DNA of 64,000 bases from Antedon mediterranea. Its lineage: Eukaryota; Animalia; Echinodermata. The notes under the pieces were generated by a model. It made no database searches. It saw only the letters and a program-made list of their open reading frames with translations, and was not told the origin of the DNA. A program made the position numbers and the translations under genes. Shown piece by piece: positions 1-54,400 of the stretch; positions within the stretch are counted from its first letter, which is position 1, and every line of letters begins with the position of its first letter. The DNA lies in NCBI RefSeq assembly GCF_964355755.1, contig NC_092671.1, positions 15,557,742 to 15,621,741 on the forward strand, read 5' to 3'.

Positions 1-3000
1 TGCATTGCTGGTTATCGTGGAGATCAGTGTCAAAGTCGTAAGTATTACAGTAATGTTATTTATATTTTTTACATACAGTCACAATAACATACAGTCACAA
101 TAGCATACAAGTGTTTTTTAGTACTTATGTTAATCAGAATTTGACGCAATTACAATAGGCACCAAAGAAGCTAGTGTTTGTCAATTTGGTTACCAATCAT
201 TATTTACACACAGACACCATTCAGACAAGACATAAACAAATTATTAGAAAATATATACATTATAACAATTTTTTTTAAATAATTTAAAAAAATAGGCCGC
301 CCACAACATCATCATCTCTAGTGAGACACTTCCTTGTAAGAGCTTTGAGTCCAAACATTTGTGTGTAGTTTCAAAATAAGTTAAAATGACAGAAAAAAGG
401 TATACTGTATTTAGATCTTGTTGTAAATGTTTAAAAGTCTCCCTTTTCAGTGTGAAGTCATACCTAATTTCTTCACATCATGTAGTGAGTGTATTTTGTC
501 GATAAATAAAAGTAATTTTACATTACCTATATGATTCAATTTTAGCTTGCAAGGAAAACTTTTGGGGTGTGGCGTGTGCTGAGAAATGTCAATGTGAAAA
601 TGGTGCTTCTTGTGACCCACTTAATGGAATATGTTCCTGTACCCCTGGATTTACAGGTCTGTAAATAATAATATTTATATAATAAAGAAAGATAATTTTG
701 ATAATTGAAACTACCAATATCGCATGTTGATTTTTTTCCTGAACAAAGATCATTTACATTCCAGGTGCAAATTGCAATGCTACATGCAGTGTTGGTCTTT
801 ATGGACAAGACTGCTTGTTACCTTGTGAATGTAAGAATGATGCCGAATGTGACCCTGTCAATGGTGTCTGTAAATGCAAACCTGGCTTCACAGGACCCTA
901 GTAAGTGGTCACTTATTTTGTAACTAAATAATCATGTTAAGCTCTGTCTACACTATCAAATTTTATGTGAAAAAAATGTGACGTGCCCATATATGGGCAT
1001 GATGATGTTCCCATATATGGGCATGATGATGTCATTTTTTTAAAAAGATATTTTGATAGTGTAGACAGAGCTTTAAATTAATTTATATTCACATTGTGTA
1101 TTTTATGTTGTGTGTGTGTGTTGTGTGGAAAAAAAATTACTATACTATACTACCTTACTACTACCGAACATGTACATACATGCAAAATGTTAGCAGAAAA
1201 GGCAATTGCGTCATCTAACTACGAAATAATATTACTACTACTTGACATGACCAGTACATTTGACACGGTGCGGAGGAATACTCTATTCGACATACTGACA
1301 CATATATTACAAGATGATGAACTACACATGTTGAAAGTTTTGACAAACAATGTAAAATTAAGCGTTCGAATTGGAAAACAGACAGGAAAATTGTTTACTA
1401 CTACACTAGGAGTACCACAAGGTGACTGCATGTCTCCGATACTGTTCACACTATACCTAGCAAAGGCATTCGAATCAGCAAACACAACACCACTACCCCT
1501 ACAACAGCTTAATATCCAGATGCAGTATGCAGATGACATTTCATTTATTAGCGACTCAAAAGAACAATGTAACAGAAAAATTAGCAGAATTCAATCTAAA
1601 GATAAACGAAAGTAAAACAGAAGAATACCTAATAGGAAGAAACACAGATAGTAAATGGGAAGAATGCAAATACCTCGGTAGTAACTTGGACACAGAAAAA
1701 GACATTAAAAGAAGAAAATCACTAGCAACTATGGCATATAACAAGCTGAAGTCGTCGCTAGAACACAAAACGATGTCTATAGACGTGAAATCCCGTTTGT
1801 TTGACGCATACATAGCAAGTATTTTCTTATATAACAGTGAACTCTGGGTACTAAACAAAAAATTACAAGAGAGTATAGATATATATCACAGGAAAATGTT
1901 GCGAAAGATGATAGATATTAAATTAACAGATAGAGTGTGTAACACAAAAATATACGAGATAACAAAACAAGAAGAATGGAGTAAAAGAATTAAACGAAGG
2001 AGACTAAAATGGTATGGACACATAATTAGATTACCGGATGATACCCCAATCAAACAAACAATGAAGGAAACTAACAGGAAAGTAAAACGACCCGTAGGAA
2101 GACCAAGAAATAACTGGATGAATCAAATAAAGAAAGACTTACAAGGACTAGTAGACACTAACACAATAACAAACCATCCTGCCATAAACAGAAAAAAATG
2201 GAAACAAATTGTGGAAAGCGTAATGTCGGAAGACGGAAAACGTTAGCAACAACAACAACTACCTTTAAACCAATATGTTTGTATAAGGAATGAGGAATTT
2301 ATATTTATCTTTGTCTTCACACCTCTAGCTGTGAATCGACTTGTCCAAGCGGCACTCATGGCTTAAACTGTGCCTTAGAATGTAGCTGTCACCATGGATC
2401 GTGCCATCATGAAACAGGGGAGTGCACATGTGAAGCTGGATGGAAGGTAAATATTATATAAAAGAGTCATGTGTATTTTAATTTACTAAAGATTATTAGT
2501 TTAACATTGTTTGCAATACTATTTACAGGGTGAAATGTGTTCAATAAAGATTATTAATTTTAAAATTGTTTGTAATAATATTTACAGGGTGAAATTTGTT
2601 CAATAAAGATTATTAATTTTAAATGTGTTTGTAATACTATTTACAGGGCGAAATTTGTTCAATACCGTGTGAACAAGGCACATACGGTGCTAATTGCACC
2701 GAGAAATGCGAATGCGATAATGCAGTATCATGTGACATAGCAACAGGAGAATGTACATGTCTTCCTGGTTACATCGGGCGAAGATGTAGAAAGAGATGCA
2801 AACAAGGTTTCTACGGTGGTGAATGTCTAGAAAGTTGTGGTTGCCAAAATGGTGCTTCATGTTCACACATTGATGGAGAATGCACGTAAGTACATGTCTC
2901 ACTCAATTATCAACCATTTCTGTGACCAGAGTTTAGTGGTGTACTTATACATATCATATTCAGAAATCTAATTCAAAAGTAAGAAAAATTACGTTTTAGA

Positions 3001-6000
3001 GTTAATACACTTTTTAAATGTATTTTCTGTTGCAGGTGTCAGCCTGGATATGCTGGACTACAGTGTGAACAAGATGGTACATTTATTTTTTAATTTAAAA
3101 AAATGATTATCTCCTAATGTGTACATAATGTATGGTGGCAGTTTTCAGGGAGTACAGTTTCAATAGAATAATAATATTTTTTTGGCATAGAGAACATGAT
3201 AGAATTGCTAGGAAAATCAAATCAGCATACACTTTGATTTATTAGAGTGATATGGCGTAATTGTATGGATATCAGAATACCATGTGAGAGGCATGGTTTC
3301 AAGACCTGCCAGTGTCATAAAGCATCTTACCTTGGGCAAAATGCTTTAAGCTCTGTCCACACTATCAAACTAGTTGTGATGTGCCCTAATAATGTAGTGA
3401 TATGACATCATCATGTCCATGTATGGGCACATCACATTTTTTTTGTAGCATAAAGTTTGATAGTGTAGACAGAGCTTTACTCATTGCCTTGTAAACCGTT
3501 GGACCTGTGTATATATATTGTGCATGATAAAGGACTTGGTAAACTATTTAACAAGAGAAAGGAAATCACCTTCCGTACTGTGCCATCTGGGAGAGAAAAT
3601 TCTTGCACTGAAAGAGGTCACCCAGTTTATAGAAGTTCAATAATCAAATCAAAGTTAACTCTATTAAGAAAGTCAATCAACTTTATCTTTCACAGAATGC
3701 AGTGCATGGAAATATGGAAGTGATTGTACAAAGGATTGCATATGTAATAAAGAGAAAGCTTCAAGGTATTTCTCAATATCCTTTTTTATTACTAACATGA
3801 TGTTCCAATAAATATCAGATGTTTCTTGATATATTGCATAGGCATGCCAATTTTCTAAGAATGCACATGCCCCAAAAGATACATGAATCGGTCCAGATCT
3901 ATATTATTTCCCCCATGATTTTATCCTTAAACAAGCATGTTCTTTTCATCAACAATTCATCTCCAACTTAACTTTATGTTTTAAAATTTAGTCTTCCGTA
4001 TGATTTATGTAATGTACACTCCATTTTTTATGATTTTATTTATAGATGTCTGAGCCATACTGGTGAATGTGTCTGTTCACCTGGGTACGAGGGTAGCAAC
4101 TGTGAATCTCTATGTTCATTTGGATTCTATGGTCTTGAGTGTAAAGAATTGTGTGGGTGTCTGCATGGAAGTAAATGTAACCCTATCAATGGGTCTTGTA
4201 CATGTACTGCAGGGTGGCGTGGAAAACAGTAAGTTGTTTAAAAATACTGTTCATTAGCTATATAGTAAATTTCATGACATAATATATGTTTTCCAAAAAC
4301 TGTACATATATTTTTATAACAATTTCAATTTTTTGTTTTACTATTTTAAAAGGTACCGTTATCACTTTTCACTTTAATACTTAACAAAATCCATATACTC
4401 TATTTCAGTTGTGAAATACCATGCATGTCTGGGTCATATGGATTGAACTGTGACCTTACATGCAAATGTTTGAATGGAGCAGTTTGTGACAATGTTGATG
4501 GTACTTGTGACTGTGCCCCAGGTATGTGCTCTCAAAATGTTGGTGAAATTTTACTGGAAAGAAAACGTATTTTTTATTTACAATGGTAAATCACACTCAT
4601 GGTTTACCAACTGATCTAAAGTTCTGTCTACACTATCAAACAAAAAGTGTGATGTGTCCAAATATGGTAGTGATATGCCCAAATATGGTAATGATATGAT
4701 ATCATCATGTCCATGTGTAAATCACATTTTTTTGTCACATAAAGTTTGATAGTGTAGACAGAGCTTAAAGTTAATAAATAAACTTGTTTACTTTGTTGGC
4801 AGGGTGGGATGGTATCCTGTGTGAGAAGCCTTGTACATCAGGTTTCTTTGGCAAGGGTTGTAATATGTCTTGCAATTGTGATAATGGTGCACCATGTGAT
4901 CCTGTCAGAGGAACTTGTATATGCCCTGCAGGCTTTACAGGTGAAAAATGTGAGATGCCCTGTCAGGTACAGTATACATGATTTCTACTATAATGTTAAT
5001 TCTTCGTCTATGTTGTTCCTAAAAAAGTAACACTACTACAAAATACTTATAATTTAGGCAAGTATACCTCGCTGATTAGATGTTTGTATATAAAAAATAT
5101 TTGACAAATTTACAGTATTTACAATTTAATGTACACTCAATTATAGGCATCTATGTTTGGAATTGACTGTCAAAATAATTGCAGTTACTGTGGGTTAAAT
5201 TCAAATGGATGTGACAATGTGATTGGTCAATGTATCTGTCTCCCTGGTTACACAGGTAAGTCCCAATTACATCATTGTTATTTCCATTTGTTTATTTTGT
5301 ACACTATATAAATCTTTCTTATTCTTATCAACTATACTTGTTTTCAACAGGTGTCAATTGTAATAGCACTTGTCCTGATGGTTTCTGGGGACCAAACTGC
5401 AAACGGACATGTAGTTGTAAAAACAAAGGATCATGTGATCAATTTGATGGTTCGTGTATCTGTCCTCCAGGATTTTCCGAAAAACATTGTGAAAACTGTA
5501 TGTTGGTGTTTTTTTAAAATTAGTATGTTTATAATTAAATTCCTTTGAATATTAAAAAAAAACAAATAATAAAGTAAATTATGTAAAAGTAAAGTAAAGT
5601 AAAACTTTGTTCATTTCTGACTGTAGAAAACTAGGTTTTGCAATTTACGATATACATATTAAAATATGATAACATTTTAAAAATATAAATAAATATCATA
5701 CATATAAAAATTACTTTACGAGATATTGCAGAGATATTTTTGTAATTCTTATATATGAAGTTTTGTATTGTATTTGTTAGTGTGCAAGGATGGATTCTAT
5801 GGTTTTGAGTGTGATTATGCTTGCCCTGATTGCCCAACTGGAACTTGTCACTCACGAAACGCCAGCTGTGTCTGCCCGTCGGGATTTACAGGTCCAAAAT
5901 GCTCACAAAGTAAGCAACAAATCTTCCTTTTGCATTAAGTTATATCAAGAAGTATTTAGTGTAAAGCAGTTGTAATAATAAATCATACAATTCATTTGAA

Positions 6001-6698
6001 AAATTTTGTAACAAAATATTTAAGTTCTGCATGGGAGAAACATACTTAAAGTATCCCAATGATCGATTTATAGTATTGTATTGTTACTTATAAATAGTTT
6101 TGAGTTTAATTACAGTTTAGTTATTCATGTCTTTTTATTTTTCAATATGTTCTGTTTTGTTTCTTGGACCGCACCGCATATATTGTGAGTGCCACCGATT
6201 CAAAGGTGCATGGTCAACAAACAAATAAATAAATAAATAAACTGGAAAAAATGTTGATTTCTTATAATATTATTGCTCTAATAGTAAGTACAATATTCTG
6301 AAAAATATTGTGTATAACAGATATTTCATATAAATATTTACAGAAAATTTATATGGAAAACAGTGATGAGAGCCAAGTGAAATAATTTAAATCCAACATA
6401 AAGTAGACAGCCAGAGAACGATGACAGGCAATTAGAAAATACTCCATATTCTATGTTGGAGCTAAATATTTCTTTGCTATTCATATTTACATTCTCACTT
6501 GTGTAGGTTGTGATAATTATATGTATGGACACAATTGTGAAGATGTATGTCAGTGCCTGAACCGTGCAGACTGCAATTCTGTTAATGGTGAATGTCTGTG
6601 TCAACCAGGATTCCAAGGTCACTACTGTGAAAACCGTAAGTCACTATCTTATCTAAAATATATGAAATAATTTCAAGTCTGTTCACATAAAGATTTAG

Positions 6699-6729
<31 letters not shown>

Positions 6730-9700
6730 TAATTTGAATTTATGAATTTCTTTTGTACAAACTAATCAGAATAAAAGAAACAACAGTTTTTAATTCATTT
6801 GGTACTACAAACCACATTTAATTGACAAAGGTATAAAATGAGGTTTGTTCACATAATGGTTTAGAAGAAATCTGTGTTAATTTGAATTTAGACATTTATT
6901 TTTAACAAAGCAATCAGAATAAAAAAAGTAAAAGCCAGATGATTTTTTTTACATTTAATTGACAAAGTATGAAATGAGGTCAATTCTGTTGACATACTAA
7001 AGATTTTTAGAGAAAATCTGTGTTGATTTGAATTCAGAAATGTCTTTTTAACAAAGTAATCAGAATTAAAACTACCCAGATGAACATTTTTACATTTACA
7101 ATCAAGAAATATGGATCTTTATATATTTTCATATCACACAAGTAAAATATCTTTGCAGTATTATCAAATATCATTAAATATTATTATTATTATTATTATT
7201 ATTAAATATTATGTTTATGTTCTCGTTTTGATAGCATGTGACCAAGGTTTCTATGGGTTTGGCTGTGAATCAGAGTGTAAATGCCAAAATTCTATGTCAT
7301 GTGATCCTTACGATGGAGAGTGTGTATGTAAGCCAGGCTGGCATGGTGTCTTTTGTTCAGAACGTAAGTATGCCGCCTATTTTTAGAATACATAGTATAT
7401 TGATGTTTGTGCAGCAGTATTGTGACAGAAACACTGAATACTGAAATCCTTTATTTGTCCTATATCATAATAAAATAACAATAGAAATTAATTTTAAAGA
7501 TTGGCAAATATTAGTACTAATCAGTATAATTACTGTAGTACAGATAAATATAAAATATTTAAACAAATTAATATATAGAATACACACACATATTACACAA
7601 AAATTAATTTTTAAAATGCGGTTACAATTTAAAAGATAAAATAATAAATAAGATGAAATACAAATATAAAATAAAACATTCGTAATTTATTTCAGATTGT
7701 CCAGATGGAAAGTTTGGCAAGAACTGTTCTGAAGATTGTAAATGTGGGAACGGAGCGGACTGCGAGGCTGACACTGGGAAGTGTACATGTCAACCTGGTT
7801 GGAGTGGACTATTGTGTAATATACGTACGTATTCTTTATTGTCAGCATTATACCTAGAATTAATTATTATAGTATTGCTCAATAATTTCAATTTTAAGAT
7901 TTGTAACTTTTTTATCTAGTGGTACACGGACAATGTTTTAGGTAACCAGAAGTAGTCAAGAATAAAAGAAAACTAATTGTTTATTCTCAAACTTTTATTA
8001 CTTTTAATAGGAGCTGCTTTTTCTGGTTTTGGTTTCAATGATGCCCATTAGTTAAAAATATAATTTCTGAGGTCATGTCCATATTCCCTAGCTTTTTTTT
8101 TTTACACCTTATACATTTATAAAACAAACTGTTTATATTTATGTCTTGCAGCATGTGAGGCAGGGTCGTTTGGAGTAAATTGCAAAGACAAATGCCAATG
8201 TGAAAATGATAAATTTACATGTGATCGTATATATGGATGTGTATGTCCTGATGAATATAAGGAAGGTTGTGTATCAAGTAAGTATTCCTGCATGGTTTTA
8301 TAAAATGGTATTTTGAACTTTATCTTGTAATGCAATGACCTGATTGTCTGAATTGCTGATTGCTTTTATGAATATAAATATGATAAGTTAGCTTAGTTTA
8401 ATCATAGCTCTTAAAGTAATCCAGAAATCTTTCACAGCAAATTTCTTACTTAAACAACTCGGCTTTGTTAATCATATTTTTGTTTTATTACAGAAATCCA
8501 AGCAAATGCTGATAGATTGCTAGATGGAATTGACGGCGAAGAAGAGGGATCAAACTACATTCTGCCTCTTGTCATATCTTTTCTTCTTATCATTCTTCTC
8601 ATAGCTATTATCCTATTCCTGATACTAAGACGTCGAAGGAAAGAAAAAAGTCATTTACCAGCCGTATCGTAAGTAATTGATTATTCATCATTCAATTGTT
8701 TCTGTTAGTCTTAGTTAGAAGAATACTGTATGTATGTTTATTATAGCATGAGCAATAAAGCATCCAAATATAAAATAATTTTTGCAATTTAATATTTTAG
8801 TTTGATAGCAGATTATTCTTTATTGCATTATGCATCAATTTGTTTATTACATTTCAAATTTATTTTCAAACATATTTCTTTGTCTTTTAAATTTAAAGAC
8901 TCTTCAAATTTTGAACATAAATCCTTCAAAAGTTGAATTTTCAGAACGTTGATAAGAATTTAGCAATAAAAATTTTCACATCAACAGATATTCAGCATCA
9001 ACTAATAATAGCAGCGGACGCTCGTATATGCAAGTACCACCTAGTGACGATTACAGGTTTGACATTCTTGCCAATAGCGTTTTATCATTTCGACTCTGTT
9101 TTCATCCACGCTTCTGTCTCATAATTATTGACATAGTACAGTCACTTTATTACATTTTCACATACATAGCCATGTTATTGATAATTTTGTCAATGTTTAA
9201 TTAGATAATGAGGATGATTTATATATTGTGTATGCTGGTAGATTTTATTTGTTGAATTTTTTGTGTTTTCTGCATGCATTATGCACTTATGCACTATACG
9301 ACCCAGTGAGTGGGGTGCGTCATTTGTCCGATGTGCGTCATACGATATGAATATAATGACGCACCCCTGCGTCAAAAAAGTGACTTACCTTTAGATAACC
9401 ATGACGAGCCCGTTTTGAAGGACATTGACACACCATTGTTTATTGATTATTATGATATGACCATTTAGATTTTTTGACACACTATGAATCAATAATTATT
9501 TATAAATGATGCACCCATGACGTGCCTGTCCCGGAGGTTGTATACTGGGCCATACAATTGACAAGTGCATTACCATATTAACAGCAGGCAATCCTGTATA
9601 AACAATTTATTATTCACATAGATGCACATACATGCACTGTAATTTAGTATACTTATATAACTGTGGCTCTTTGCTTTTGCCTCTGATACAATTGTTTTAT

Positions 9701-18552: not shown

Positions 18553-23589
<5,037 letters not shown>

Positions 23590-33400: not shown

Positions 33401-36400
33401 TTTGCCCCATTTCACTCATAAACATTCAATAATTATAATGAAGGTTTATGAGTGCAATAGGGCAAATAATTTTATGAGGTGAAAAATGAAAGGTTACATT
33501 TTCACGAGGCGAATCTGAATGAAAATAGATCATTTCATCTTTCCCCGAATTAAATTACAACATCGTCATGTGTTCTGGCTACTCACTGTGACCCACAATC
33601 GTCCAATCAAATGACAAAAATCGAATTAGGTGTGCTATAAAAAGATAACCAAAAGTACATTTTTATTATAGACATAATTCACCTAAGTATAATGTATATC
33701 TTTTCTTGTAGAAACGTGTGTTTGTTAGTGGTTTGACTGAAGAAGTTGTTAATAATGCGGATAAGATAATTGACCTATTAAAGAAAGGGGACCGTAAGTT
33801 TACAGTAACCTCTTTTTTAACAGTTAAAAAATGTATCTAATCTGGTAGAAGATATGTCAATACACACCTAGGTTAACTCTGTTTTATACACGTAAAGCTG
33901 ATCATAATCATATACTAAGTTATAGTGTGATGTCCCCAAATATGGTAGTGATATGACTTTATCGTGTCTATATATAGGTACATCACATTTTTTTGTCACA
34001 TAAAGTTTGATAGTGTTGACAGAGCTTTACATCCATTAACCACGATATAACTCTGATAGCTTTCAGATGTACTGTGCATCCAATGTAACTTTAAAATGAT
34101 ACATTAGTTAGTCAAACAATTCCCATTGGTGGTATCTCAGATGTTTAACCGGTATATGTTGCGCTAGAACAGAACTGCGAGGTAACTCTGATAGTGGAAA
34201 GAGTGTGAAACATAGCTTAATACCATATATCCTCTTGTATAATCCCACCCCCATTGAACACGAGATTGGGCACACTTTGGAGGGTGGGACTATACCTGGG
34301 GAAACCCTGGTTCAGGAAAAAGATGTAAAAAGAAAAGTATTTCTTGTAAAACCTCATCTAAACTGGCTAGAGAGCCTACATCCAGACGAAAAGTCAATAC
34401 TGCAACTATACCTAGGGATGTGCCTTACAAAGAATAGGGGGTTAGACCAGAAGTGGGATTAAACCAGAGGACATACGGTATAGAGTTCTGCGGTGTGACG
34501 TCACAACGATAGATGGCGCTGCGTGGTTGCAAGCCAACCAAAAAATGTGTTCAACACTACTATACTATGTTGATAAACTATATACATCTGTATTTCTATA
34601 AAATTATGTATCTTAGCTTGATTTTTTTTTAACTTAAACTGTAGTTGAAGAATAAATAGATTATTAAAAACAAATATTTAATGATCTTTTGAAATCTTAG
34701 TTTGTTTTTATTAATAATTATTAAGTTTTAAAATGACTAATCAATAAGCCTATTCCAAACCATTGGAGTCACTCGGGCTGGTTGCATGCAGCACCACCTA
34801 CCATCGTGACGTCAGCACAGCAGAACTCTATGTATCATTATCAACCTTTTTTTACAGAACAACGACACGTCGGACGGACAAATATGAATGAACATAGTAG
34901 CAGATCACATACTATTTTCTGTATTGTAAGTCATTTATTTGATAAAAGTTATTTTTTAGACATATAATTGTACAATAATTCATTGAATTCTGGCCTGTAT
35001 TTATGATTTTAAGTGGCTCGTAATATTGAATATTCTATATTATATTTTCCCATTCTGGGTAACATTCATTGATAACAGAAAGAGAATTTGGTTGGAAGTT
35101 CATGATTCATCTATCTACTTGTAGATTTCAACCACATCCACTCCATTGCATCAATACTTTTTCCTATTGTACTATATGCCTACTGTATTTGCTAGATCTT
35201 AATATTTCATTCTAATTCATAGGTTATTGAATCACGTGAAAGAACCAATAATCGCCAGTCATATGATGGAGCTGTTAAAGTTTCTAGACTAGTAAGAATA
35301 CAATAACTTTCTAAATTATTTTAACTAGAACAGAATGAAACAAAGTTTTAAAGTAGTTTATGTCGGTTTTTGTTGGCTAAAATCTGTTTTGAATGAGTCT
35401 TAAATTTATCTAAAATGTTATTTTATGTTTGAAGAATCAAGGAACTTGCCAATGATTATAAATCATTCTGATAATCATAATCATACAGATATATAAATAG
35501 TACTAACAAAAAGTTGTTTTTTTTTAGAACCTTGTTGATTTGGCTGGTTCTGAGCGAATAAATGAAACAAAAGCAGAAGGTGTGCGTTTGAAAGAAGCAT
35601 GTAACATCAACAAGAGTTTGTTTGTATTGGGACAAGTGATCAACAAGCTTAGCTCTGGATCAGATTATATTCCCTTCAGGGACTCAAAGCTGACTCGAAT
35701 CCTGCAACCATCACTTGGAGGCAATGCAAAGACTGCCATAATTTGTACTGTCACACCGGCAGCCATCGATCAGACGCATAACACGCTTCAGTTTGCCAGT
35801 CGGGCCAAGACCATCAAGAACAAACCAGAAATGCATGAAATCTTGTCTGATGAGGCGTTGCTAAGACGATACAAAAGTGAAATTGAAAACCTCAAAAAAC
35901 AAATTGATCAGGTAATTCATTTTTTAAAAAAGATTATGGATTGATAAGTCCAATCTTAACATAGGTTATTTGTCAGGTAATTCATTTAAAAAAGATTATA
36001 CGGATCTAGTCCAATCTTAACATAGGTGTTTGTTGATTAGATTTTTACCGTTTATATAATATTATTCTCAGTTTGATAAACAGGATAAACTAAAAGATGG
36101 TTGGCAATCTCTAGAGAATGAAAAGAGACAAATGGCAGAGGAAAATCAAAAACTGATTGAAGCTAGAAATCGTTTGGAAACAATGGTTATATCAGGCCAG
36201 GGTGAATCCATTCCGAAGAGCAAGAAAAGGGTAAGATTTAAAATAAACAATTGATACCATACTGATGTTGATATAGAAGCCACCTCTGACACAAAATGAT
36301 CAATTCCCAATACATTTTAGTTTCCATATAACCTCACTCCCTATTTACTTTACCAAATTTAATTTTCAAGGGTGGGTTGTCCTTCCTATTAGTAAGGTAT

Positions 36401-42400: not shown

Positions 42401-45400
42401 GTCGTCGACCACCACTCATGCTGGTTACATCCCTGTTATATATAGGAAAGTTTGAAAAAAAGATTACAGCAACTGGAGAATGAGAAGTCCGACTTCCAGG
42501 TGAGCATAGATATTCAGAAGGATAAGAGTGATCGTATGTGTACTGAATTAAGAACAGAATTACAATTGACCTACCAAGAACTTTCTCAGGTCAGAGGTGA
42601 AGAAGTTCATATACCAGAAAATACTCAACATTCGGTACAAGAATTACACAACACTATTGAACGGTAAATATATATGAATGAACTATGGAAGATCTATTTA
42701 TTTACAAAAGATTTAATGTGTGAATTATAAAGCCATGTCTTGTTGAAATATAAATTTAACATTTTCTTTTTAGTCTTACAAAAGAAAGTGTGACTTTGAA
42801 AGAAGACCTACAGTTAAGCATTACAAGTGTAAGTTTTCTTGATACCATTACCACATTTTTTTTCCGGCCATGCACTAATAAATTGAAATAATCAAATATA
42901 GAGATTTGATTTTGCAGAGTGTTGAGATTCAAGAAGATCTTATTAACTGTCAAGAGGAATTGGAACAATGTTCAGACAAGTGCAAGAAATTAAAGACTGA
43001 AGTTTTAACCCTCCACAAGGAACTGGAATGTTCCAGAAAGGTATCAGAAGAAAGAGTTACTCAACCTGAAGTAAGCAACCTACAAGATCAAGAGATGTAT
43101 ACACAAGAGATTGAAGCACTTAATAGCAAAATACTGGCTCTTCAAGAAGAACTGGAATGTTCCAGAAAGGTATCAGAAGTTAATCAACCTGAAGTAAGCA
43201 ACCTACAAGATCAAGAGATGCATACACAAGAGATTGAAGCACTTAATAGTAAAATACTGGCTCTTCAAGAAGAACTGGAGTGTTCCAGAAAGGTATCAGA
43301 AGTTAATCAACCTGAAGTAAGTAACCTACAAGATCAAGAGATGCATACACAAGAGATTGAAGGACTTAATGGCAAAATACTGGCTCTTCAAGAAGAACTA
43401 GAGTGTTTCAGAAAGGCATCTGAAGAAAGAGTTACTCAACCTGTAGTAAGTAATCCACAAGATAGCCAAGAGATGCATAAACAAGAGATTGAAGCACTTA
43501 ATGGCAAAATACTGGCTCTTCAAGAAGAACTTGAGTGTTCCAGAAAGGCATCAGAAGAAGGAGTTACTCAACCAGAAGTAAGCAACCTACAAGAGATGCA
43601 TACACAAGGGATTGAAGCACTTAATAGCAAAATACTGGCTCTTCAAGAAGAACTGGATGGTTCCAGGAAGGCATCAGAAGGAAGAGGTAATGAAAGGGAA
43701 GTAAGCACCATTCAAGAGATGCATAAACAAGAGATCGAAGCACTTAATAGCAAAATACTGGCTCTTCAAGAAGAACTGGATGGTTCCAGAATGTTGGCAG
43801 AAGAAAGAGTTACTCAACCTGAAGTAAGCAACATACAAAACCAACAGATGCATACACAAGAGATTAAAGCACTTAATAGCAAAATACTAGCTCTTCAGGA
43901 TAAACTCCAGCAGAAAGGGGAGAATGCACATGAAGAAGAACTAGAGATTGTCAAGAATATTGAAAAAAAGACAACTGAGGATAATTTGACAGTTTTGACG
44001 ATGCAGGAAACTCTACAGGAACGTGAAAAAGAGTGTGAAACTCAGAGGATTATCATAGTTTCTCTTCAAAAAGAAATTGAGCAACTGTCTTCTAATGATA
44101 TGGAATTACAAGAAAAGGAAGCATGTGATATAAATGGAAGCAATCAGGGGACTAGTAACATGGTTCTTCAAAAAGAATCGGATCACACTGCTGCAGAAAA
44201 GGAACATCCAGACAAAGAATCTGACATAATTTGTAATTTGCAAATGCAATTGAATGTGAAGACAAATGAATGTGAAACTTTAAATGAAATGGTGGTCTCC
44301 CTTCTTGAACAACTAGAAAAAGACAAAGAGTTTAAAGAAAGTGCTGAGGAGAGTGACTTAAAAGTCAAAGTTATAGAGCTTGAACGAAGATTGGAATTAA
44401 GTAGAGATTACGAGGTAGAACTTGAATCTCAAGTAGAAAATTTAAGAGAACTAACTATGATCAATGAATATGAAAATCCAGAAATTAATTCAAAGGAAAC
44501 GTTAATGGATGTTGCTGAGAACGATCCAGAATTGATTTCAGAAAGGGATACTACTTCAGGTAATAAATGCTCAGAAGAAGAAGATATCAGTTTAGATGAA
44601 AGTGAGAATATAACATCAGCCAGTATGGCTACAGTAGAATATGGTGAAAACAGGAAAAAGAATCTTGAATCAAAAGTTACTGAATTACAGGTTCGACTAG
44701 AAGAGATGACAGATTTACTGACGGAAATGTCGAAAAAACTTGAGCACTCGGAAGAGATGCTGAAATTCTCAAAAGATTATGAAGTTGAACTTGAAAGGCA
44801 ATTGGAAGAAGCAAATAAGAGCAAGGAACAGCAGATGGAAATGTTTAATAGGGATCAAGCTGAGACAGAATCAAAATTGGCTGATATGGAAACCAAAGTA
44901 TATGGCTCAGAGGCTAGTTATACAACTATAGAGTCAAAACTGACTGATGCAGAAGCCAAGTTGGTTTTTATGGAGTCTAATATAAGGGAAACCGAGGCGA
45001 AGTTTGCTGAAATGGAATCTAAGATTGTTGAGTTGAAATCAAAGCTTGCTGAATCGGAGGTTAAAGTTGAACAATGGAAGGTTGAAGCGGAAAGGAATAA
45101 ACGTTTGATTGCAGAACAGAGCATGAGCACTGATATGATGACAACACAGTAAGTTGATCTAAATATGAACTAGTATGAGCTTGTATGCTTTCTGCTTTAA
45201 AAATATGGTTCTTGAGACTACATATCTTCTAATACAGTATCTCTATATATTATTGTGAATACTGTGTTCAAAAAGATAATGTTTTTTATATATCCAGGCT
45301 TGAATCGTACAGACAGACTGCTGATCGTGCAAAGGGTGCACTTTTAGCTGAGAGCAACCGTGAGCTTGACCAGCAACGCAAGATTGAAACTCTTGAAAAT

Positions 45401-48400
45401 GCCCAGAAAGAGTCAGTAGCAGTTTTTCAACAGGCCAGTAAAGAAAAAGATGAGATTATTGCAGGTCTGGAGAAGAAGACCAAAGATCTATTGACCAAGT
45501 TAAGACAAACAGAAGCAGAGAGTGATCAAGCCACCCACAGGTCATTGCAGATGGAAAGAGAATCCCAGGTATAATTAATTATTTCAATTGTAAAATAGAT
45601 TACGGATAGAAATTGAACAGAGAATGGCCTATTAAAAAAATTACATTCATTTATACAAAGAAAATACAATTAACAGATTTACAATAAAAATCAGTACTGT
45701 ATAGATCATAAAAATACAATGTTATATTTCATCTTCTCTACCAGCCATGATGTTCTCGCATGTTATCAATGTTATGGTATACATACCTAACAAAAAGCTT
45801 GAAAAGCCTGCTATAAATGAGATCGCAGAAATTATCGAAGGTATTGAGTGTAGTCACCCTGAGGCGCTTGTAATTATCAATGGCGATTTCAACAGATGCA
45901 AGCTCAAGAAAACAACTGCCACATATTATCAGCATGTTACATGTAAAACGAGGGACAACGCGATTCTTGATTTATGCTACTCTAGTGTGAAGGATGCCTA
46001 TATTTCGACCCCACTACCGAACTTGGGCAAATCTGATCATAATTTGATTTTACTCAGTCCTAAATATCGCCCGTTAAATAAGACATGCCAACCAAAAATT
46101 ATTAATGTACGTAAATGGTCTCCTGAAGCCGAGGAAGCCCTGATAGCAGAATTTGAATCTACCGATTGGGATATTTTTACGGAGGATGAAGATTTGAATA
46201 GTATTACTTATGCAGTGAGCTCGTACATAAACTTTTGTATTGATAAATGCGTTCCAGTTAAAAAAGTGAAAATCTACCCTAATAACAAGCCATGGATCAC
46301 GAAAGGCGTTAAATTACTGTTGTGTGAGAAACGTAAAGCCTTTAAGATGGGCGACTCTAATCGTATGAAAATATTGACTAGAGAGATTAAATCTGAAATA
46401 AGGAAACAGAAGAACATTTATAGGAAAAAAGTTGAACATAACTTCAGGTCTAATAATATGAAACAAGTTTGGCAGGGTATTAAACTTATGAGTGGTTACA
46501 CAAACGGTGGTAATACACCCACCTCGATTCCGAATGTTACTGTGCAATATGTTAATGAGTTAAATGAATTTTATAACCGTTTTAATGTTCATGATTTTAA
46601 AAAAGAAAGAGAGGCCCTATTTAGCTTGTGTCGGGTGACTGAAGATGATCCCAAATTTAGTATAAGCATTTCTGATGTACATAGCGAATTCATGAAACTC
46701 AATTCATCGAAGGCTGCTGGGCCGGATAGAATCCCACCACGAGTACTTAAGGTCTGCTCTCCTCACCTTGATGGTATATTTACATTTATTTTCAATATGT
46801 GTCTTTCTTATCATGCGTTCCCGGATATTTGGAAACTTTCATGCATAATACCGGTACCTAAGAAACCTAAGATTAACAGCATGAATGATTTGAGACCCGT
46901 TGCACTCACGTCTGTCGCGATGAAAATATTGGAACGTATTATTTTAAAAATTATGCAACCTTATGCTGAAAAAGTGTTAGACCCGTTGCAATTTGCTTAC
47001 CGATCACTCCGTAGTACCAGTGATGCGATTTATTTTAAATTACATAAATTGTATTCACATCTAGATAATGTAAAGAAAGGCCACTCGGCACGTATTATGT
47101 ATTTTGATTTTCAGTCTGCGTTTAATACCATACAACCCCATATCTTAGCAGACAAAATGTTGAATATGGAGTTTCCCCGTCCGATTGTTCGTTTAGTTTT
47201 AAATTTCATTTGTGATAGAAAACAATTTGTTAATATTAATGGTGTTAAGTCAGAAATCGTAACCTCTGACACCGGTGTTCCTCAGGGTACTGTCAACGCA
47301 CCTAAATTATATTCCTTGTATACGGCCGATTACAGATCTTTAAATGATGAGCTTTGCCCCGTTGTTAAATTCGCTGATGACACTAGTACTATTGGTCTCA
47401 TAGTTTCAAACAATGATGAAAATTATCGTAGCGAAATACAAAGATTTGTAAAATTTTGTGACGATAATTATCTCCAAATAAATGCATCAAAAACAAAGGA
47501 GATGATCATTGATTTTAGGACTAAACATAAATTTAATTTTCAACCAATCACTATCAAAGGTAAAGAAATTGAAATTGTTGACCAGTACAAGTATCTAGGA
47601 ATTGTTTTCAATGATAAACTGAATTGGGGAGACCATATAGACTACATCAGCAAAAAATTAAATCCCAGAATGTATTGTATGAGAACTTTATATAAATTTA
47701 ACTCCTGTGATTTGATGTTACTTTCGTTTTATAGATCCGTTATATGTAGTGTTTGGACGTATTGCCTCTCCTGTTGGGCTGGTAATGTTACCGGAGGGAA
47801 TAAAGGACGCCTTGAAACTTTCATCCGTCGGGCTGGTAAAATGATTGGTCTGGAACTGCCTTCCTTTACCGATGTGCACCTAGAACACCTCCAGAAAGAT
47901 TTCGAACGCATTGAGTCGGATGCCTCTCATCCTCTCCACAAAGTGATCATAGACCAACTTAATCCAAGTGGTAGATTGAGGCTCCTCAGTGTGAAAACAA
48001 ATCGATTTGCTAAATCCTTTATTCCCTCCGGTATCATCCAGTACAACAGGAAGTCAAGAAGATAATTTTATCTTGTAATTTTTTAGATGTTTTTATATGA
48101 ATGGTTTTATGCTATATTTGTTTTTATTGTGTTTTCTTTGTTATTATGACGAGCAATGAATTTCCTTGTTGAGGATCAATAAAAGTTATCTTATCTTATC
48201 TTATCTTATGTAATATTTACTTTTATGTTTAAAGGACCTTCGTGATCGTGTAAAGGAGCTGGAGAATCACGCTTTTGATAATCGCCAGTTAACATGCAAA
48301 CAAGATATGGATCCTGCTAAGCTTGCACAACGTTTAAAACAAGTGGAGTTCAACCTTGATATAACAAAGCAAAAGGCAGATAAATTTGAGAAAATAAACA

Positions 48401-51400
48401 AAGAACTTAAAGGTTCGTACATAAATGATAAATGTATTTAAGTAATACCATATACATGAATATTATTAAGTTTAATTTGGACACAAGACTTTGGTAATTC
48501 ATTGATAATGCATGTGCAACAAGTATAATCTCAGCTGATTTTTCACAACTTTTGCACCCAGACATTGTGATACTCATATGCGGGAATAGCAGTAATAGTG
48601 TACTATGGTATGTGCCTATACAGTAAAGCAGAATTGCTGTTTCCTCTCGCATATTTCCATTTTCTTTCTTATTTTATACATTTTTTGGTTATGGTAAATT
48701 TACATTCTCTCTATTTTTTTTTTCAATTTTAGACTCAAATAAGAAATTTGAAGCCAATGAGTTCAAAGCAAATGATCTTGAGAAACAGCTGAGGGATGTC
48801 AACTTTGAATATGAGCGCCATCGCACACAGTATAATCGGTTGAAGTCTCGTTACGATAACATTGTAGTTGAACTAGCAGATATCAAACACAAACTGGCTA
48901 AATCGGAGATGAAAAATGCTGGTATTGATACTGATAAAATGAGGAATGACCTTTGCACTCTTGAGAAAGAGAGCATTAAACTAAAAGACAGAGTCAGCTT
49001 AAGTGATAAGAAAATCCTGCAGCTTGAGAACAGGATTGCAATTGATGATAAGGATAAAGTACACATACAAGATAAAATGAAATCTTTACAGGTAACATTA
49101 ACTATGTACAATAATAAATGTCATATCCATTTTGCCATCAATTATATAACGTGATAGAATTTGTTATTTATTTTTACAGGGTAACCTCTTCAGTCAAAGA
49201 CTGGTCTCCCAGAGGGCCAGTTATAATCAGTGGCTGTGTGTATACTAGTACACAGGGGTAACCCCCTACTCATCTCAAAAAATGTACTAGGTTCTTTAAA
49301 TTGCACATGAGCTAGATGTGTACACTGGACCTACGGTTTATCCGAGAAGACTCGTTCTACTACCAGAACCATATGGAGCGAGTGAGCCTAGAACCCTTGC
49401 CGATGTTATGGCTATGTAATTACGATTCCACTGTCTTAACGGCTCGGCCACTCACTCGCTAAGTACATATAAATATAAAATATTCATTTCATATAGGATG
49501 AGCTGCAGTATAACAAAACTACAATTCAGGAATTACAGTTAGAAAAAGAACACACACTGAAGAAAATGGAACAGAATGAGAAACATTTCAACAGCGTTTG
49601 TCAAGAACTGGAAAATGAGTTGACCGCATGTAAGAAGCTGTTAACAGAATGCCAAGAGCAACTTCAAGATTCAATGGTATTTGGAATATTTATGTATTGT
49701 ATTTAGTGTTTTCAATAAATTAAAAAAGCTTGTGAAAATGTGTAAGACATTGATTGATTGATTATACAGTATTTGACTACATGCATTTTGAAACATACCA
49801 AAGGGATACATTCTACCAAAGTATTATCTTCAATGAAGGCAAGACCGGTTTGGTTTGTAGATCAGTAATTCAATATGATTTGTTGTGATATTACAGGAGA
49901 AGGAAATGAAATTTAAGACAGAAATTGAAGAACTTAACGAAGAGAAAGAAAATGTGAATGAAAGGTTAACGACGATGGAGGAAGAACTAGAAAAGCAAAG
50001 CAGTCAACATGAACAAGAAATTAACACATTACAGGTGGGATGAGCTACATTTATTTATTATTTTTTTATTTAGTAAGTAATTAATTAAGGGCATTTCTAA
50101 TAAATGAAGCTCTGTCTACACTATCAAATTATCTGACGAAAAACTTGATGTGCCCATATATGGACCATATCTAAGCAAATCACTACCATATATGAACATA
50201 TCACACTTTTTGTTGTAAAACTAGTTTGATAGTGTAAACAGAGCTTAGGACAAATTGAAATAATGAACCCAATTTGGTGAGAGTAAGAAAAAAAAACTGT
50301 TTTAATAAACTGAATTAGGAGGATTTTATGAATTGTGTGACCAAGATGGATGCAGTTAGAGAAGAGAACAATCGAGCCAATGAGAGAATTAAAGAAGTGG
50401 AGATAGAAGCTAAGGAAAAAATGGAAAACATTCAGGAAGAGCTAGCTGAACAATCACTGAAACACCAACAAGAAATGGATACATTACAGGTATAGTTATC
50501 TCATCTTCTTTTACTGTGCAGAACTGTGTTTAAGTATAGTGGTACATGATGTTTGCATTTGATAATAACAATTACCGTAAGGAATGTTGCTATCAATTCT
50601 AATCTAATTAATAAATCTAATAGAAAGATGCAATGAAGTATATGGCTGAAATGGCCAACATGAAAGAAGGAAAAGAAATTTCCAATGATCAACTTAGAGA
50701 AGAGTTGACAGAAGCTGAGCTAAAAATAGAAAACATTGAAAAAGAACTTGCAGACCAATCAACAAGATATGAACAGGAACTCAAGTCGTTACAGGTGGGC
50801 TAACATTTTAATCATTTAACTAGAATACAAGAATACGCCACTGCTGTAATTTCTTCATTATTGGTTATTAGTTTAGTACCCTAAAGTATAATTAAATTTT
50901 CTTGAATCTAATTTAATAGGAAGATGGAATGAAATACATGACAGAAATAGAACAACTTAAAGAAGAGAAGGAAAAGATAAATGAAATGTTAAAGGAACAA
51001 ATTGTAGAAGCTGAAAAGAAACTAGAGACAAATCAAGAACAACAAGAAAAACAAAGTATTCAGCATCAACAAGAAATTAGCACATTACAGGTAGGAACCG
51101 CTACATTAATTAAAACAATAAATAGGACAAATTGTCTTAAACTGTAAGTACTTAGAAGCATATCGAACCATGTAAGCATGAACCCAATTTGGTGAGATGA
51201 AAGTGAACATAAATCATTGTCAATACCATACCTTTTTAATTGAATTAGGAGGATTTTATGAATTGTATGAGCAAGAAGGATGCACTTAGAGAAGAGAACA
51301 AACGAGCCAATGAGAGAATTAAAGAAGTGGAGATAGAAGCTAAGGAAAAAATGGAAAACATTCAGGAAGAGCTAGCTGAACAATCACTGAAACACCAACA

Positions 51401-54400
51401 AGAAATGGATACATTACAGGTATAGTTATCTCATCTTCCTTTACTGTGCAGAACCGTGTTTAAGTATAGTGGTACATATTAGGGAGGTTTCGCAACCTTA
51501 CAAATACGATAACGAAAACGGATATGTCATACATTTGTGAAACTTTTGAGCTGATCCCCATTTCATATTCGTAAAGCGTATTCGTGTTGACGAATATCAC
51601 CAGTCATATTCGTAACTACAAAACGAGTATAGTTTTTGATCTATTTTGCACATTTTGCATTTGAATCAGGAATGATTCATGATTATAATATAATTATAGA
51701 TTTATTGAAAGTAATTTACTAAAGTAATTTACTAAAATGCCAAGTCAATTTTGATAAATAGCAGTTTTTAAAGTCCTCACTCGCTTTGATGTTACGCTAG
51801 GCCTAGGCAGCCAAGCACCAAGCAACACGTACCTGCGCTTCGCTCAAATTTACCGCAGTCATATTTTGGACGCGCCTTAATATTTCGTTGCCATGCGAAA
51901 CAGATTTTTTATGACTTACGAAAACGAATATGTGTGCGTGACGTATCCGTTTTTGTTATCGTATTCGTAAGATTGCGAAACCTCTCTAATACTTATGATG
52001 TTTGCATTTAATAATAATAATTGCCATAAGGAATGTTGCTAACAATTCTAATCTAATTAATAAATCTAATAGGGAGATGCAATGAAGTATATGGCTGAAA
52101 TGGCGAACATGAAAGAAGGAAAAGAAATTTCCAATGATCAACTTAGAGAAGAGTTGACAGAAGCTGAGCTGAAAATAGAAAACATTGAAAAAGAACTTGC
52201 AGACCAATCAACAAGATATGAACAGGAACTCAAGTCGTTACAGGTGGGCTAAAATTCAAATACTAGAAAAAAGAATACGATACTGATCCGCAAGATGCAA
52301 TAATATCTCATTATTTGTTTAGATTGTAGATACCTTCAGTTTTTAGTTTGTAAAACTAAAAGTACCCTAAAGTATAGTGTTTTTTTTTCTATAAATGACA
52401 TTCTTCTTGAATCAAATCTAATAGGAAGATGGAATGAAATATATGACAGAAATAGAACAACTTAAAGAAGAGAAGGAAAAGATAAATGAAATGTTAAAGG
52501 AACAAATTGTAGAAGCTGAAAAGAAACTAGAGACAAGTCAAGAACAGCACCAACAGGAAATTAGCACCTTACAGGTAGGAAACACTTCCTTGAAAATTGT
52601 TGATATTGTTTAGATGAGAATGATAACTAGACAAATGACACTCCTATTTGTTTTGAAATGTCTTACATACAGACTGATTCAATCAAATACATGACTAAGA
52701 TGGAAATGCTAAAAGAAGAAAAGGATGCTGCCAATGTCAGACAGATAGAAGATGAAGAAACAATAGAAAGAGTCAAGCAAGAGGTAGCAGATCAATCTAT
52801 TAGATATCAACAAGAAATCAATACATTGATGGTATGTTTACCTAAATGGCCAGTAACTGTTATACAAATAATAAATATAGGAGTTTCAATGTGAAAAATG
52901 TTTCACGAGTTGGAAGATTGGCTATTCAATTTAACGAAATGAGTTTATGCATGCTTGCAATGAACGAAATTATTCCCCTCAATCAACAAGTATAAAACAT
53001 GAATTATTTGTTTTATAACACACCTAACACAATCAATCGATTTTACCATGCAATAAAGTTTATCACAAATAGCGAGAGCGATGCATGATGAAGAAATTGG
53101 GAGCAATAGCGCCACCACCAGTATATAAAGTTATTGGCTATTTCTCCCAACCATTCCCATCATGCATTGTGCAATGACGTTCCTCGCAAAATCAAGCTAT
53201 TTGCAATAGACATTATAGAACTAATACAGGTGTGTTATACAATGTAATGTTGTCGTTGTGTACAAGTACATGATATTATTCCCAAGAACAATATTAGAAA
53301 GAAAGTATCTATGAATGACATTAATGTGTGAAAAGTTCTCATGTAAAGACAATCGAGCTATATTCATGTACACCTGAACAAGGAAGCTATGCATCATGTA
53401 GTTTGTGATCTTGTTTGATGTATTTGTTTAGATTTTAGCATTTGTTCTTTGTTTGTTCTAACTTACAGTGTAGCATAAAGGACTTACAAATGGAGCTAAC
53501 ATCACTGCAGGAAACAAACGAGGCTGCAGAACAAGACGATTGGGCTTTAAGTAAAGTTTGCAATGATCTTAAATTAGAATTGGAGGAAGAACGGCAACAA
53601 AAGAAACAAATGAATGATGTATTGAAGCAAGAACAAGTAAGTTGTAAAAAAAAAATATATGGCTTTATTTAAAAATGTTTCAATTTAACAATTGTATTGA
53701 AGTAACAAAGTACTTGGCGTATTTTATGGTCGCTCTTTGTGTTTTCCAACTGATGAATACGTGTAGATAGTGCACCCTCTTCCGGATGAGATGTTAAGCT
53801 GTTGGTCCTGTGTGCAACATGGCTCATGTGCATGTTAAAGAAATTGGGCAGTACACCAGGAGATTCGAAGATTGTACTGTCCAAGTCGAAGATATCCTTG
53901 GTGTACTACTACTACTGTGTCATGTATAATTATTCTGTTTTTCAGTTATGCATTTCTTCGCATTTGATTACTACTTTAATTGTAATAATTTGATTGTTAC
54001 TTTAAAAAAATGATTATGTATAAGTTATATATCTATTTTTTTCTGTAGGATAAGTGTTCAGATCTGATGTCAAAACATGACTTGTTGGTGAGTCAACTAG
54101 AAAAATTAAAACGTTCAGAATGTGATCTTGAAAAGTTGTGCGATCAGATCCAGGAGGAACAAGAGGAAGAAGAAAGAAAACATAAAGAAACAAAAGAAAA
54201 ATTAAACAAATTAGAGGTAATTTACTAGTTTTTTTGTTGTTTGTGTGCTCAGTCATAAGTTGTAATAAGTGTTTTTCTGGTTTCTTTCATTTATTAAACC
54301 ATACTTAGTATGTAAATTTCTGGAATTGTTTGGAAGTACGGTATATGAAATCCATGTAATTTGACCAATTGTCAATTGGTTTAATTGCTTGTGTTGTGCT

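Follow-up and report, generated by a model that had tools for sequence, protein, structure and literature searches.

A triplicated splice acceptor in a MEGF10/Draper-like gene of an echinoderm, probably a mirage-type tandem repeat across an intron-exon boundary

Known repeats across splice junctions

The structures which come closest to the one described here are the so-called mirages of amphioxus. The term was taken from the amphioxus Adh3 locus, which carries unstable arrays according to the account that Ebner et al. give of it (Canestro et al., 2002, cited in PMC3087553). In the amphioxus globin gene BflGb6 the 3' end of an intron and the 5' portion of exon 2 are tandemly duplicated (Ebner et al., 2010, PMC3087553). 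The two haplotypes have 3 and 6 units with 81-100% identity, many of the units retain the AG/GT, and RT-PCR found regular splicing (PMC3087553).

The array analyzed here lies in a MEGF-like gene. It was found in a window of 64 kb, by which we mean the whole stretch of DNA that was analyzed, and it consists of head-to-tail tandem copies of a unit holding intron sequence, exon sequence and a splice signal. With the amphioxus mirages (Adh3 and the globin genes BflGb6 and BflGb9) it shares a tandem, minisatellite-like unit which spans an intron/exon boundary, and with BflGb6 in particular it shares the composition of the unit, an intron end followed by an exon start. As in amphioxus the authentic copy would lie at the edge of the array, where it is placed here by reading frame and by the spacing in homologues, and as in amphioxus both 5' and 3' boundaries are affected within the window. 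The size of the unit is different, 59 bp here compared to 150-160 bp in the amphioxus globins and 10-72 bp in Adh3. Length polymorphism, somatic instability and undisturbed splicing have been shown for the amphioxus mirages, whereas the array described here is known from one sequence.

The host lineage is different as well. The Rab11 encoded in the window has its best database identity (89-90%) to Holothuria, its C-terminal tail is most like that of a sea cucumber, and the Rab11 search gave no Branchiostoma match. Searches with the MEGF-like, CENP-E-like and Rab11 queries gave no protein match from the same species or a close relative, not even an ORF at the level of an exon, and exact-pattern scans of metagenome contigs with exon sequence and with the core of an 89-bp satellite gave 0 matches each.

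A second group of related structures is found in human genes. Minisatellites in which the first monomer spans an exon-intron boundary have been described in F7 (a 37-bp VNTR in IVS7), CBS (IVS13), LMNB2, PDGF and an interferon-induced gene (Borensztajn et al., 2006, PMC1557585). The pseudo-donors of F7 are competent and are never used; splicing takes place at the authentic site only (PMC1557585). The human arrays are all located at the donor side, have 5-25 copies and are polymorphic, whereas the MEGF-like array is located at the acceptor side and has three diverged copies. What they have in common is that a splice-site sequence is reiterated in the intron and that the site beside the exon body is used, which for the MEGF-like gene is suggested by the reading frame. 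The window contains one event of the F7 IVS7 donor type, in a CENP-E-like gene, and the unit of this array includes the final 4 bp of the exon, just as the F7 monomer does; the MEGF-like event is the acceptor-side mirror image. It should be noted that a rule of scanning which takes the upstream site first would choose the wrong copy at an acceptor-side array, unlike at the human donor-side arrays.

Competition between duplicated acceptors has been studied in artificial globin constructs. In the early experiments the proximal copy was used and another group found the opposite, as these studies are summarised in PMC1557585. The experimental duplications are similar to the array described here in that attached exon sequence is the cue which we propose below; our pseudo-acceptors carry 16-18 nt of exon, the figure depending on the treatment of a 2-nt TA microhomology found at the boundary. 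They are different in being artificial constructs in mammalian cells or extracts, with conflicting reports on which copy wins. Reed and Maniatis (1986, Cell 46:681) reportedly let identical acceptors compete in cis, with proximity and attached exon sequence deciding the outcome.

A model for intron gain should also be mentioned. The Rogers model hypothesizes that introns are gained when an AGGT proto-splice site in an exon is duplicated in tandem (Hellsten et al., 2011, PMC3265369; Lehmann et al., 2010, PMC2891723). In this model, as here, a tandem genomic duplication supplies the splice signals, the duplicate becomes intronic and nonsense-mediated decay (NMD) absorbs the mis-spliced products. 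However, the duplication takes place within an exon and creates a new intron, whereas in the MEGF-like gene an existing junction is spanned and the intron goes from 82 to 200 nt. The array is not a case of AGGT-type intron gain: the duplicate starts 40 nt inside a pre-existing intron with the donor GTAAAT at 2447, and there is no new intron position.

The array and its host gene

The window is AT-rich animal DNA (~32% GC), in which there is also an abundant 89-bp satellite and a 772-aa retrotransposon ORF, for which an exact look-up gave no record. The MEGF-like gene was modelled from the sequence as 18 exons on the + strand, from 1 to 8668, with all introns GT-AG and a shortest intron of 95 nt. 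The exons have 42.8% GC and the introns 27.9%. A frame of 761 codons runs uninterrupted across the 18 exons, and it holds only with the exon start at 2647. In the predicted product many laminin-type EGF repeats, in which the cysteines recur with a period of ~43 residues, precede a single transmembrane segment and a basic stop-transfer sequence (RRRRK). Pfam recognized EGF_laminin (2.3e-47) and EGF_PEAR1L (3.6e-19), and with the spliced MEGF-like segment as query the closest database proteins were PEAR1, MEGF10/11/6 and draper-like proteins at 33-48% identity, the best of the matches reaching 39-48%. Judged by its sequence the host is an intact MEGF10/MEGF11/PEAR1/Draper-like receptor gene, of which the 5' end lies outside the window; the modelled part includes neither the N-terminal EMI domain nor the cytoplasmic motifs. 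The coordinates of the relevant features are presented in Table 1.

Table 1. Positions in the window of the exons, the intron and the duplicated segments at the two junctions
Feature	Position	Strand	Description
Upstream exon	2329-2446	+	Ends TGT GAA GCT GGA TGG AAG (CEAGWK), phase 0; AG/GT flanks, continuous ORF, Pfam EGF_laminin and EGF_PEAR1L
Intron	2447-2646	+	200 nt, donor GTAAAT at 2447; 82 nt without copies 1 and 2
Repeat copy 1	2487-2544	+	58 nt, 1-nt deletion compared to copies 2 and 3; pseudo-acceptor 1, AG at 2527-2528
Repeat copy 2	2545-2603	+	59 nt; pseudo-acceptor 2, AG at 2586-2587
Repeat copy 3	2604-2664	+	59 nt (2604-2662) plus 2 nt of boundary microhomology; putative productive acceptor, AG at 2645-2646, and the start (16-18 nt) of the real exon
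Downstream exon	2647-2885	+	239 nt; in frame from 2647 only; can be aligned to PEAR1/MEGF homologues across the junction without gaps
Donor-spanning tandem duplication, CENP-E-like gene	35908-36033	+	~65 + 61 nt; last 4 nt of the CENP-E-like exon and the donor

Tandem Repeats Finder reported a repeat with a period of 59 at 2487-2664 (3.0 copies, 91% matches, score 293). In pairwise alignments the identity between copies is 88-93%: copies 1 and 2 agree at 53/59 positions with one 1-nt gap, copies 2 and 3 at 55/59, and copies 1 and 3 at 52/59. For a single 55/59 match at any short offset the chance expectation is ~1e-18 over the whole window. The unit is made up of ~41 nt from the 3' end of the intron, the AG and the beginning of the exon, to which the exon-derived part of every copy is identical or nearly so. 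The sequence TTTACAG/GG is present in all three copies, and in each of them the intron-like part ends with TTTACAG and the exon part continues GG(T/C)GAAAT(G/T)TGTTCAAT. At the ends of the array there is a TA microhomology inside an imperfect 7-mer (TTTACTA / TTCAATA).

No further copy of the 59-nt unit was found elsewhere in the window when up to 12 mismatches were allowed, and we therefore regard the array as a local duplication; that the unit is a piece of a dispersed repeat or transposon was ruled out on the same ground. One could also suspect a triplication produced by mis-assembly, or a decaying paralogue in which an upstream acceptor is used, since MEGF-like genes are often multi-copy. 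We find either of these extremely improbable: between the copies there are 4-7 substitutions and one indel, unlike what a collapse or stutter would give, and the frame and the canonical splice sites are kept in all 18 exons.

When the frame is followed from the upstream exon, a start at 2529 (acceptor 1) leads to a stop after 25 codons and a start at 2588 (acceptor 2), which is shifted by 59 nt (2 mod 3), leads to a stop after 50 codons. With a start at 2647 (acceptor 3) the whole exon of 239 nt is open. The junction peptide which begins with CEAGWK and continues from 2647 can be aligned without gaps to CTAGWRGASCDEPCPIGTFG in PEAR1 (P0001) and to CKAGWEGSDCSRPCRDGMFG in a sea-cucumber protein (P0002). 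Because the frame is kept and the spacing of the homologues is matched only from 2647, we infer from reading frame and homology that the third copy is the productive acceptor.

The initial annotation of this DNA had described a 59-bp unit with pyrimidine tract, AG and exon start, present three times in tandem, of which only the third copy continues as an open exon. Both statements are borne out, the first by Tandem Repeats Finder and the alignments, the second by the 239 nt open from 2647. The extent given for the triplication (2507-2646) has to be changed to 2487-2664 and the 17 nt of exon to 16-18 nt, the unit of 59 bp is only 58 nt long in copy 1 owing to its 1-nt deletion, and the stop said to follow about 25 codons after either upstream copy is found there for copy 1 but not for copy 2, where it comes after 50.

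Strength and context of the three acceptors

In the 22 nt which precede the AG only a few positions distinguish the three acceptors, and they also differ at exon position +3. The 16 other acceptors of the gene were used to build a weight matrix, which gave scores of 0.68, 3.92 and -3.15 for copies 1, 2 and 3, compared to 1.8 +/- 2.7 for the other 16, but the matrix is too noisy for ranking, as true sites span from -1.7 to 8.6. A branch-point-like yTnAy motif is found in each copy, TTAAC in copy 1 (at -25) and TTAAT in the two other copies (at -31). By these measures the upstream copies are not detectably weaker, and each of them looks like a self-contained module of branch-point-like motif, T-rich tract and AG. 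To call them decoys, as was done at first, is thus fair in the sense of look-alike pseudo-acceptors, since neither the matrix scores nor the branch-point-like motifs mark them as weak. NAGNAG or short-distance tandem acceptors were considered and rejected: the AGs are 59 nt apart, with a separate T-rich tract and yTnAy motif for each. No unusual RNA structure which could mask the pseudo-acceptors was found over the region (z = +0.31).

The sequence that follows the acceptors is different. In the first 59 nt downstream the GC content is 46% for the real acceptor vs 19-20% for the two pseudo-acceptors, and it is at least 32% in every true exon of the MEGF-like gene. The 19-20% found past the pseudo-acceptors is intron-like. 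We propose that the third acceptor would be preferred because it is the only one which is attached to a real exon body, the cues being the GC content of 46%, a composition normal for exons and, 239 nt downstream, a strong GTAAGT donor. By construction, protein would be made only from the copy which is contiguous with the remaining exon, that is the third, and the two upstream copies would stay intronic. Some points count against this explanation. The matrix score of copy 3 is the lowest of the three, in what is a very noisy model. If a short intron is recognized by intron definition, preference might go to the acceptor which is nearest, at 82 nt from the donor, and the early globin experiments with use of the proximal copy point in this direction as well, although the other group found the opposite.

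NMD degrades transcripts in which a premature stop lies far upstream of exon junctions. If a pseudo-acceptor were used, the transcript would have its premature stop far upstream of more than 10 exon junctions and would be expected to be removed in this way. This could be turned into a function: the upstream acceptors could be decoys which divert pre-mRNA to stop-containing, NMD-degraded transcripts and thereby tune the receptor level (regulated unproductive splicing). The pseudo-acceptors have stayed intact despite the ~7-12% divergence between copies, their scores equal or exceed that of the real site, and both upstream routes run into premature stops, all of which is as such a model would have it. 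On the other hand, by our own estimate, which was made without computation, chance alone should leave the 9-nt acceptor core intact in a large share of cases, the differences between the copies are spread evenly over the intron-derived and the exon-derived parts, and the analogues in amphioxus and human are silent, polymorphic minisatellites (PMC3087553, PMC1557585). We therefore hold such a function to be very unlikely.

A different use of the array would be as a nascent exon. Acceptor 1 (2529) together with a weak donor, AGG/GTGAAA, at 2589 would give a 60-nt cassette of 20 residues joined to 2647. The piece is in frame and contains no stop, weak donors (GTCTGT, GTATTT and GTACAG) are used elsewhere in the MEGF-like gene, and the birth of introns and exons from mirages has been proposed by Ebner et al. 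(PMC3087553). However, the intron left over would be only 58 nt compared to 95 nt for the shortest in the gene, GTGAAA has no G at +5, and an insert of 20 residues would disrupt a cysteine spacing which is conserved in the homologues, so we give this idea hardly any credence. The array is most likely neutral or slightly deleterious, and the sequence indicates no function.

Origin of the array and its possible consequences

The second array at a junction, the donor-side one in the CENP-E-like gene, was found by Tandem Repeats Finder with a period of 61 and 1.9 copies. The sequence TCAG/GTAATTCATTT is present at 35908 and again at 35973, with the GT of the authentic donor at 35912-35913 and that of the pseudo-donor at 35977-35978. 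Reading through the first donor leads to a stop after 10 codons (ORF 35540-35944), and therefore only the first donor, adjacent to the exon, would be productive. The motor-domain product spliced via this donor gives a continuous alignment with a spider CENP-E fragment; the best database identity of the motor segment is 62-78%. A 9-mer, AAAGATTAT, is common to the MEGF-like and the CENP-E-like units. It was judged to be a chance occurrence in AT-rich sequence by a hand estimate, and no further similarity was seen by eye.

The event in the CENP-E-like gene had been pointed out in the initial annotation, at 35909-36035, as being of the same kind; it is real, with 35908-36033 as its extent. The two events were taken to suggest that a local mechanism, replication slippage, duplicates exon-intron junctions. 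This amounts to saying that exon-intron boundaries in this genome promote local tandem duplication. Within 64 kb three arrays do touch junctions (MEGF-like 59 bp x3, CENP-E-like ~61 bp x2, Rab11 22 bp x26), and it has been suggested that mirages occur generally in amphioxus genes (PMC3087553).

How often a junction would be hit by chance was calculated for a reconstructed MEGF-like gene as it was before the duplications. A random 59-bp segment of this gene has a chance of 22.6% to straddle exactly one junction, or 26.6% when segments which are wholly exonic are left out, and 116 of the 140 placements which touch the ancestral 82-nt intron straddle a junction. An unbiased set was made up of the 42 junctions annotated independently of repeats (MEGF-like 34, Rab11 8), in genes which are covered by tandem arrays to 7.9% (MEGF-like) and 12.3% (Rab11). 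Of these 42 junctions 2 were found in or against tandem arrays vs 3.7 expected. One of the 2 belongs to the 22-bp x26 minisatellite, which starts at +3 in an intron of Rab11 (minus strand). Further arrays within the same introns are clear of junctions, and no older, decayed junction copies were found above background at the other 33 MEGF-like junctions.

With 22.6% straddling and 2 observed vs 3.7 expected, no junction-specific mechanism is needed and chance placement is sufficient within this window of 64 kb; a modest genome-wide enrichment of junction arrays would be compatible with these counts. Targeting of junctions is very unlikely in our opinion. A junction-directed mechanism is not supported; slippage or unequal exchange of the generic kind is plausible, with the TA microhomology and the imperfect 7-mer at the array ends.

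We consider it quite probable that the array is the result of a minisatellite-like tandem duplication which happened to span the intron-exon boundary, of the mirage type known from amphioxus. An ancestral intron of 82 nt would have grown to 200 nt through two successive duplications of a ~59-bp segment overlapping the acceptor. At short microhomology, replication slippage of the ordinary kind, template switching or unequal exchange would be the likely route. Copy 1 probably split first from the ancestor of copies 2 and 3, because these two are slightly more identical, and 2 would then have separated from 3; with 4, 6 and 7 differences among the copies as its basis, this order is not statistically firm.

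The array is a new example of a documented structure, probably in a lineage from which it has not been described before. Amphioxus and human genes have already provided documented cases of the phenomenon and of its likely neutrality, and no new question is opened by it. It illustrates how a short intron can grow by duplication of its own boundary. It is also a hazard to annotation: the MEGF-like model will come out frameshifted or truncated if a gene predictor or a spliced aligner settles on the first good acceptor. The spare acceptors left over, together with the open segment of 60 nt, are raw material for alternative exons, and the array is a potential natural experiment on competition among near-identical acceptors.

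There is a slight chance that more can be made of it, namely that mirages, which until now have been described in cephalochordates, are common in this echinoderm genome too, and that the acceptor array is a natural test case for splice-site choice, or that its pseudo-acceptors throttle the receptor via NMD. In the former case the spliceosome would skip two equally good modules and take the most distant one, so that the context of the exon body would decide the 3' splice site, and neither proximity nor scanning from 5' to 3' would be decisive in this animal. In the latter case the pseudo-acceptors would be used to a substantial extent, and this would lower the expression of a Draper-like engulfment receptor through NMD.

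Repeats and mobile elements outside the junctions

The MEGF-like gene, which encodes a receptor resembling MEGF10, Draper and PEAR1, carries a ~147-bp repeat whose three copies (74-86% identity) together fill most of a 599-nt intron and touch neither of its junctions. As this repeat shows, tandem duplication occurs often in the introns of the gene. Other introns contain three MITE-like elements, each with a short tandem or palindromic core (TGATGTGCCCATATATGGGCATGA) between terminal inverted repeats (GCTCTGTCTACACTATCAAA ... TTTGATAGTGTAGACAGAGC), and a decayed and frameshifted reverse-transcriptase fragment of the non-LTR type is found in intron 3. An apparently intact retrotransposon ORF of 772 aa lies just downstream of the large exon of the CENP-E-like gene. 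Judged by eye its translation looks like a reverse transcriptase; an exact-sequence look-up in the protein collection returned no record. In the large satellite block the repeating unit is 89 bp long and is arranged in 293-bp higher-order repeats. The unit contains a palindrome (…ACATGCGCAGAACCC…TCTGCGCATGT…), and an exact scan of metagenome contigs with the core of the satellite gave no match.

Features described in this part, in window positions
Feature	Position	Strand	Location
MITE-like element	941-1071		MEGF-like intron
MITE-like element	3350-3475		MEGF-like intron
MITE-like element	4621-4764		MEGF-like intron
Non-LTR fragment	1094-2246		MEGF-like intron 3
~147-bp repeat	6712-7071		MEGF-like intron 6636-7234
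Rab11 gene	18555-23589	minus	
Rab11 exon 3	20229-20038	minus	Rab11 gene
22-bp minisatellite	19451-20034		Rab11 gene
Double-AG acceptor	36070-36083	plus	CENP-E-like gene
748-codon open stretch	42906-45152	plus	CENP-E-like gene
123-bp array	43020-43897	plus	Within the open stretch
772-aa ORF	45747-48065		Downstream of large CENP-E-like exon
Repeated segments	50613-52498	plus	Downstream of modelled CENP-E-like exons
Satellite block	58659-63537		

A minisatellite at a Rab11 donor

The protein encoded by the Rab11 gene shares 90% identity with its counterpart in the sea cucumber Holothuria leucospilota and 88% with the one in an acorn worm, and has a holothurian-like C-terminal tail. This resemblance points, if weakly, to an echinoderm or another ambulacrarian as the source of the DNA. 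The exon-3 donor stands immediately before a minisatellite of ~26 copies of a 22-bp unit, which begins at intron position +3 (...TTTGCAG/GTATTTTACCATTTTATTCCC...). Together with the arrays at the MEGF-like acceptor (59 bp, three copies) and the CENP-E-like donor (~61 bp, two copies) it brings the tandem arrays that touch a splice junction in the window to three. Since GT is absent from the sense strand of the 22-bp unit, the minisatellite creates no pseudo-donors, the extra splice-site copies that a junction-spanning duplication leaves in an intron.

Repeats and a double-AG acceptor in and downstream of the CENP-E-like gene

At the acceptor of the intron with the duplicated donor, two AGs (ctcAG/TTTGATAAACAG/GAT) lie in frame with each other at a distance of 12 nt. 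Use of one or the other could add or remove four residues (FDKQ). In the coiled-coil part a 123-bp (41-residue) unit is repeated in seven tandem in-frame copies, whose identity to the reference copy is 72-97%, and so forms a coding minisatellite. Further downstream there are repeated, seemingly exon-bearing segments, in which an intron end AATAG is followed by GAAGATGCAATGAAG..., spaced at ~300 bp (73-77% identity) and at ~1450 bp (95% identity). As read from the sequence, these repeats suggest a recent internal duplication of putative exon blocks.
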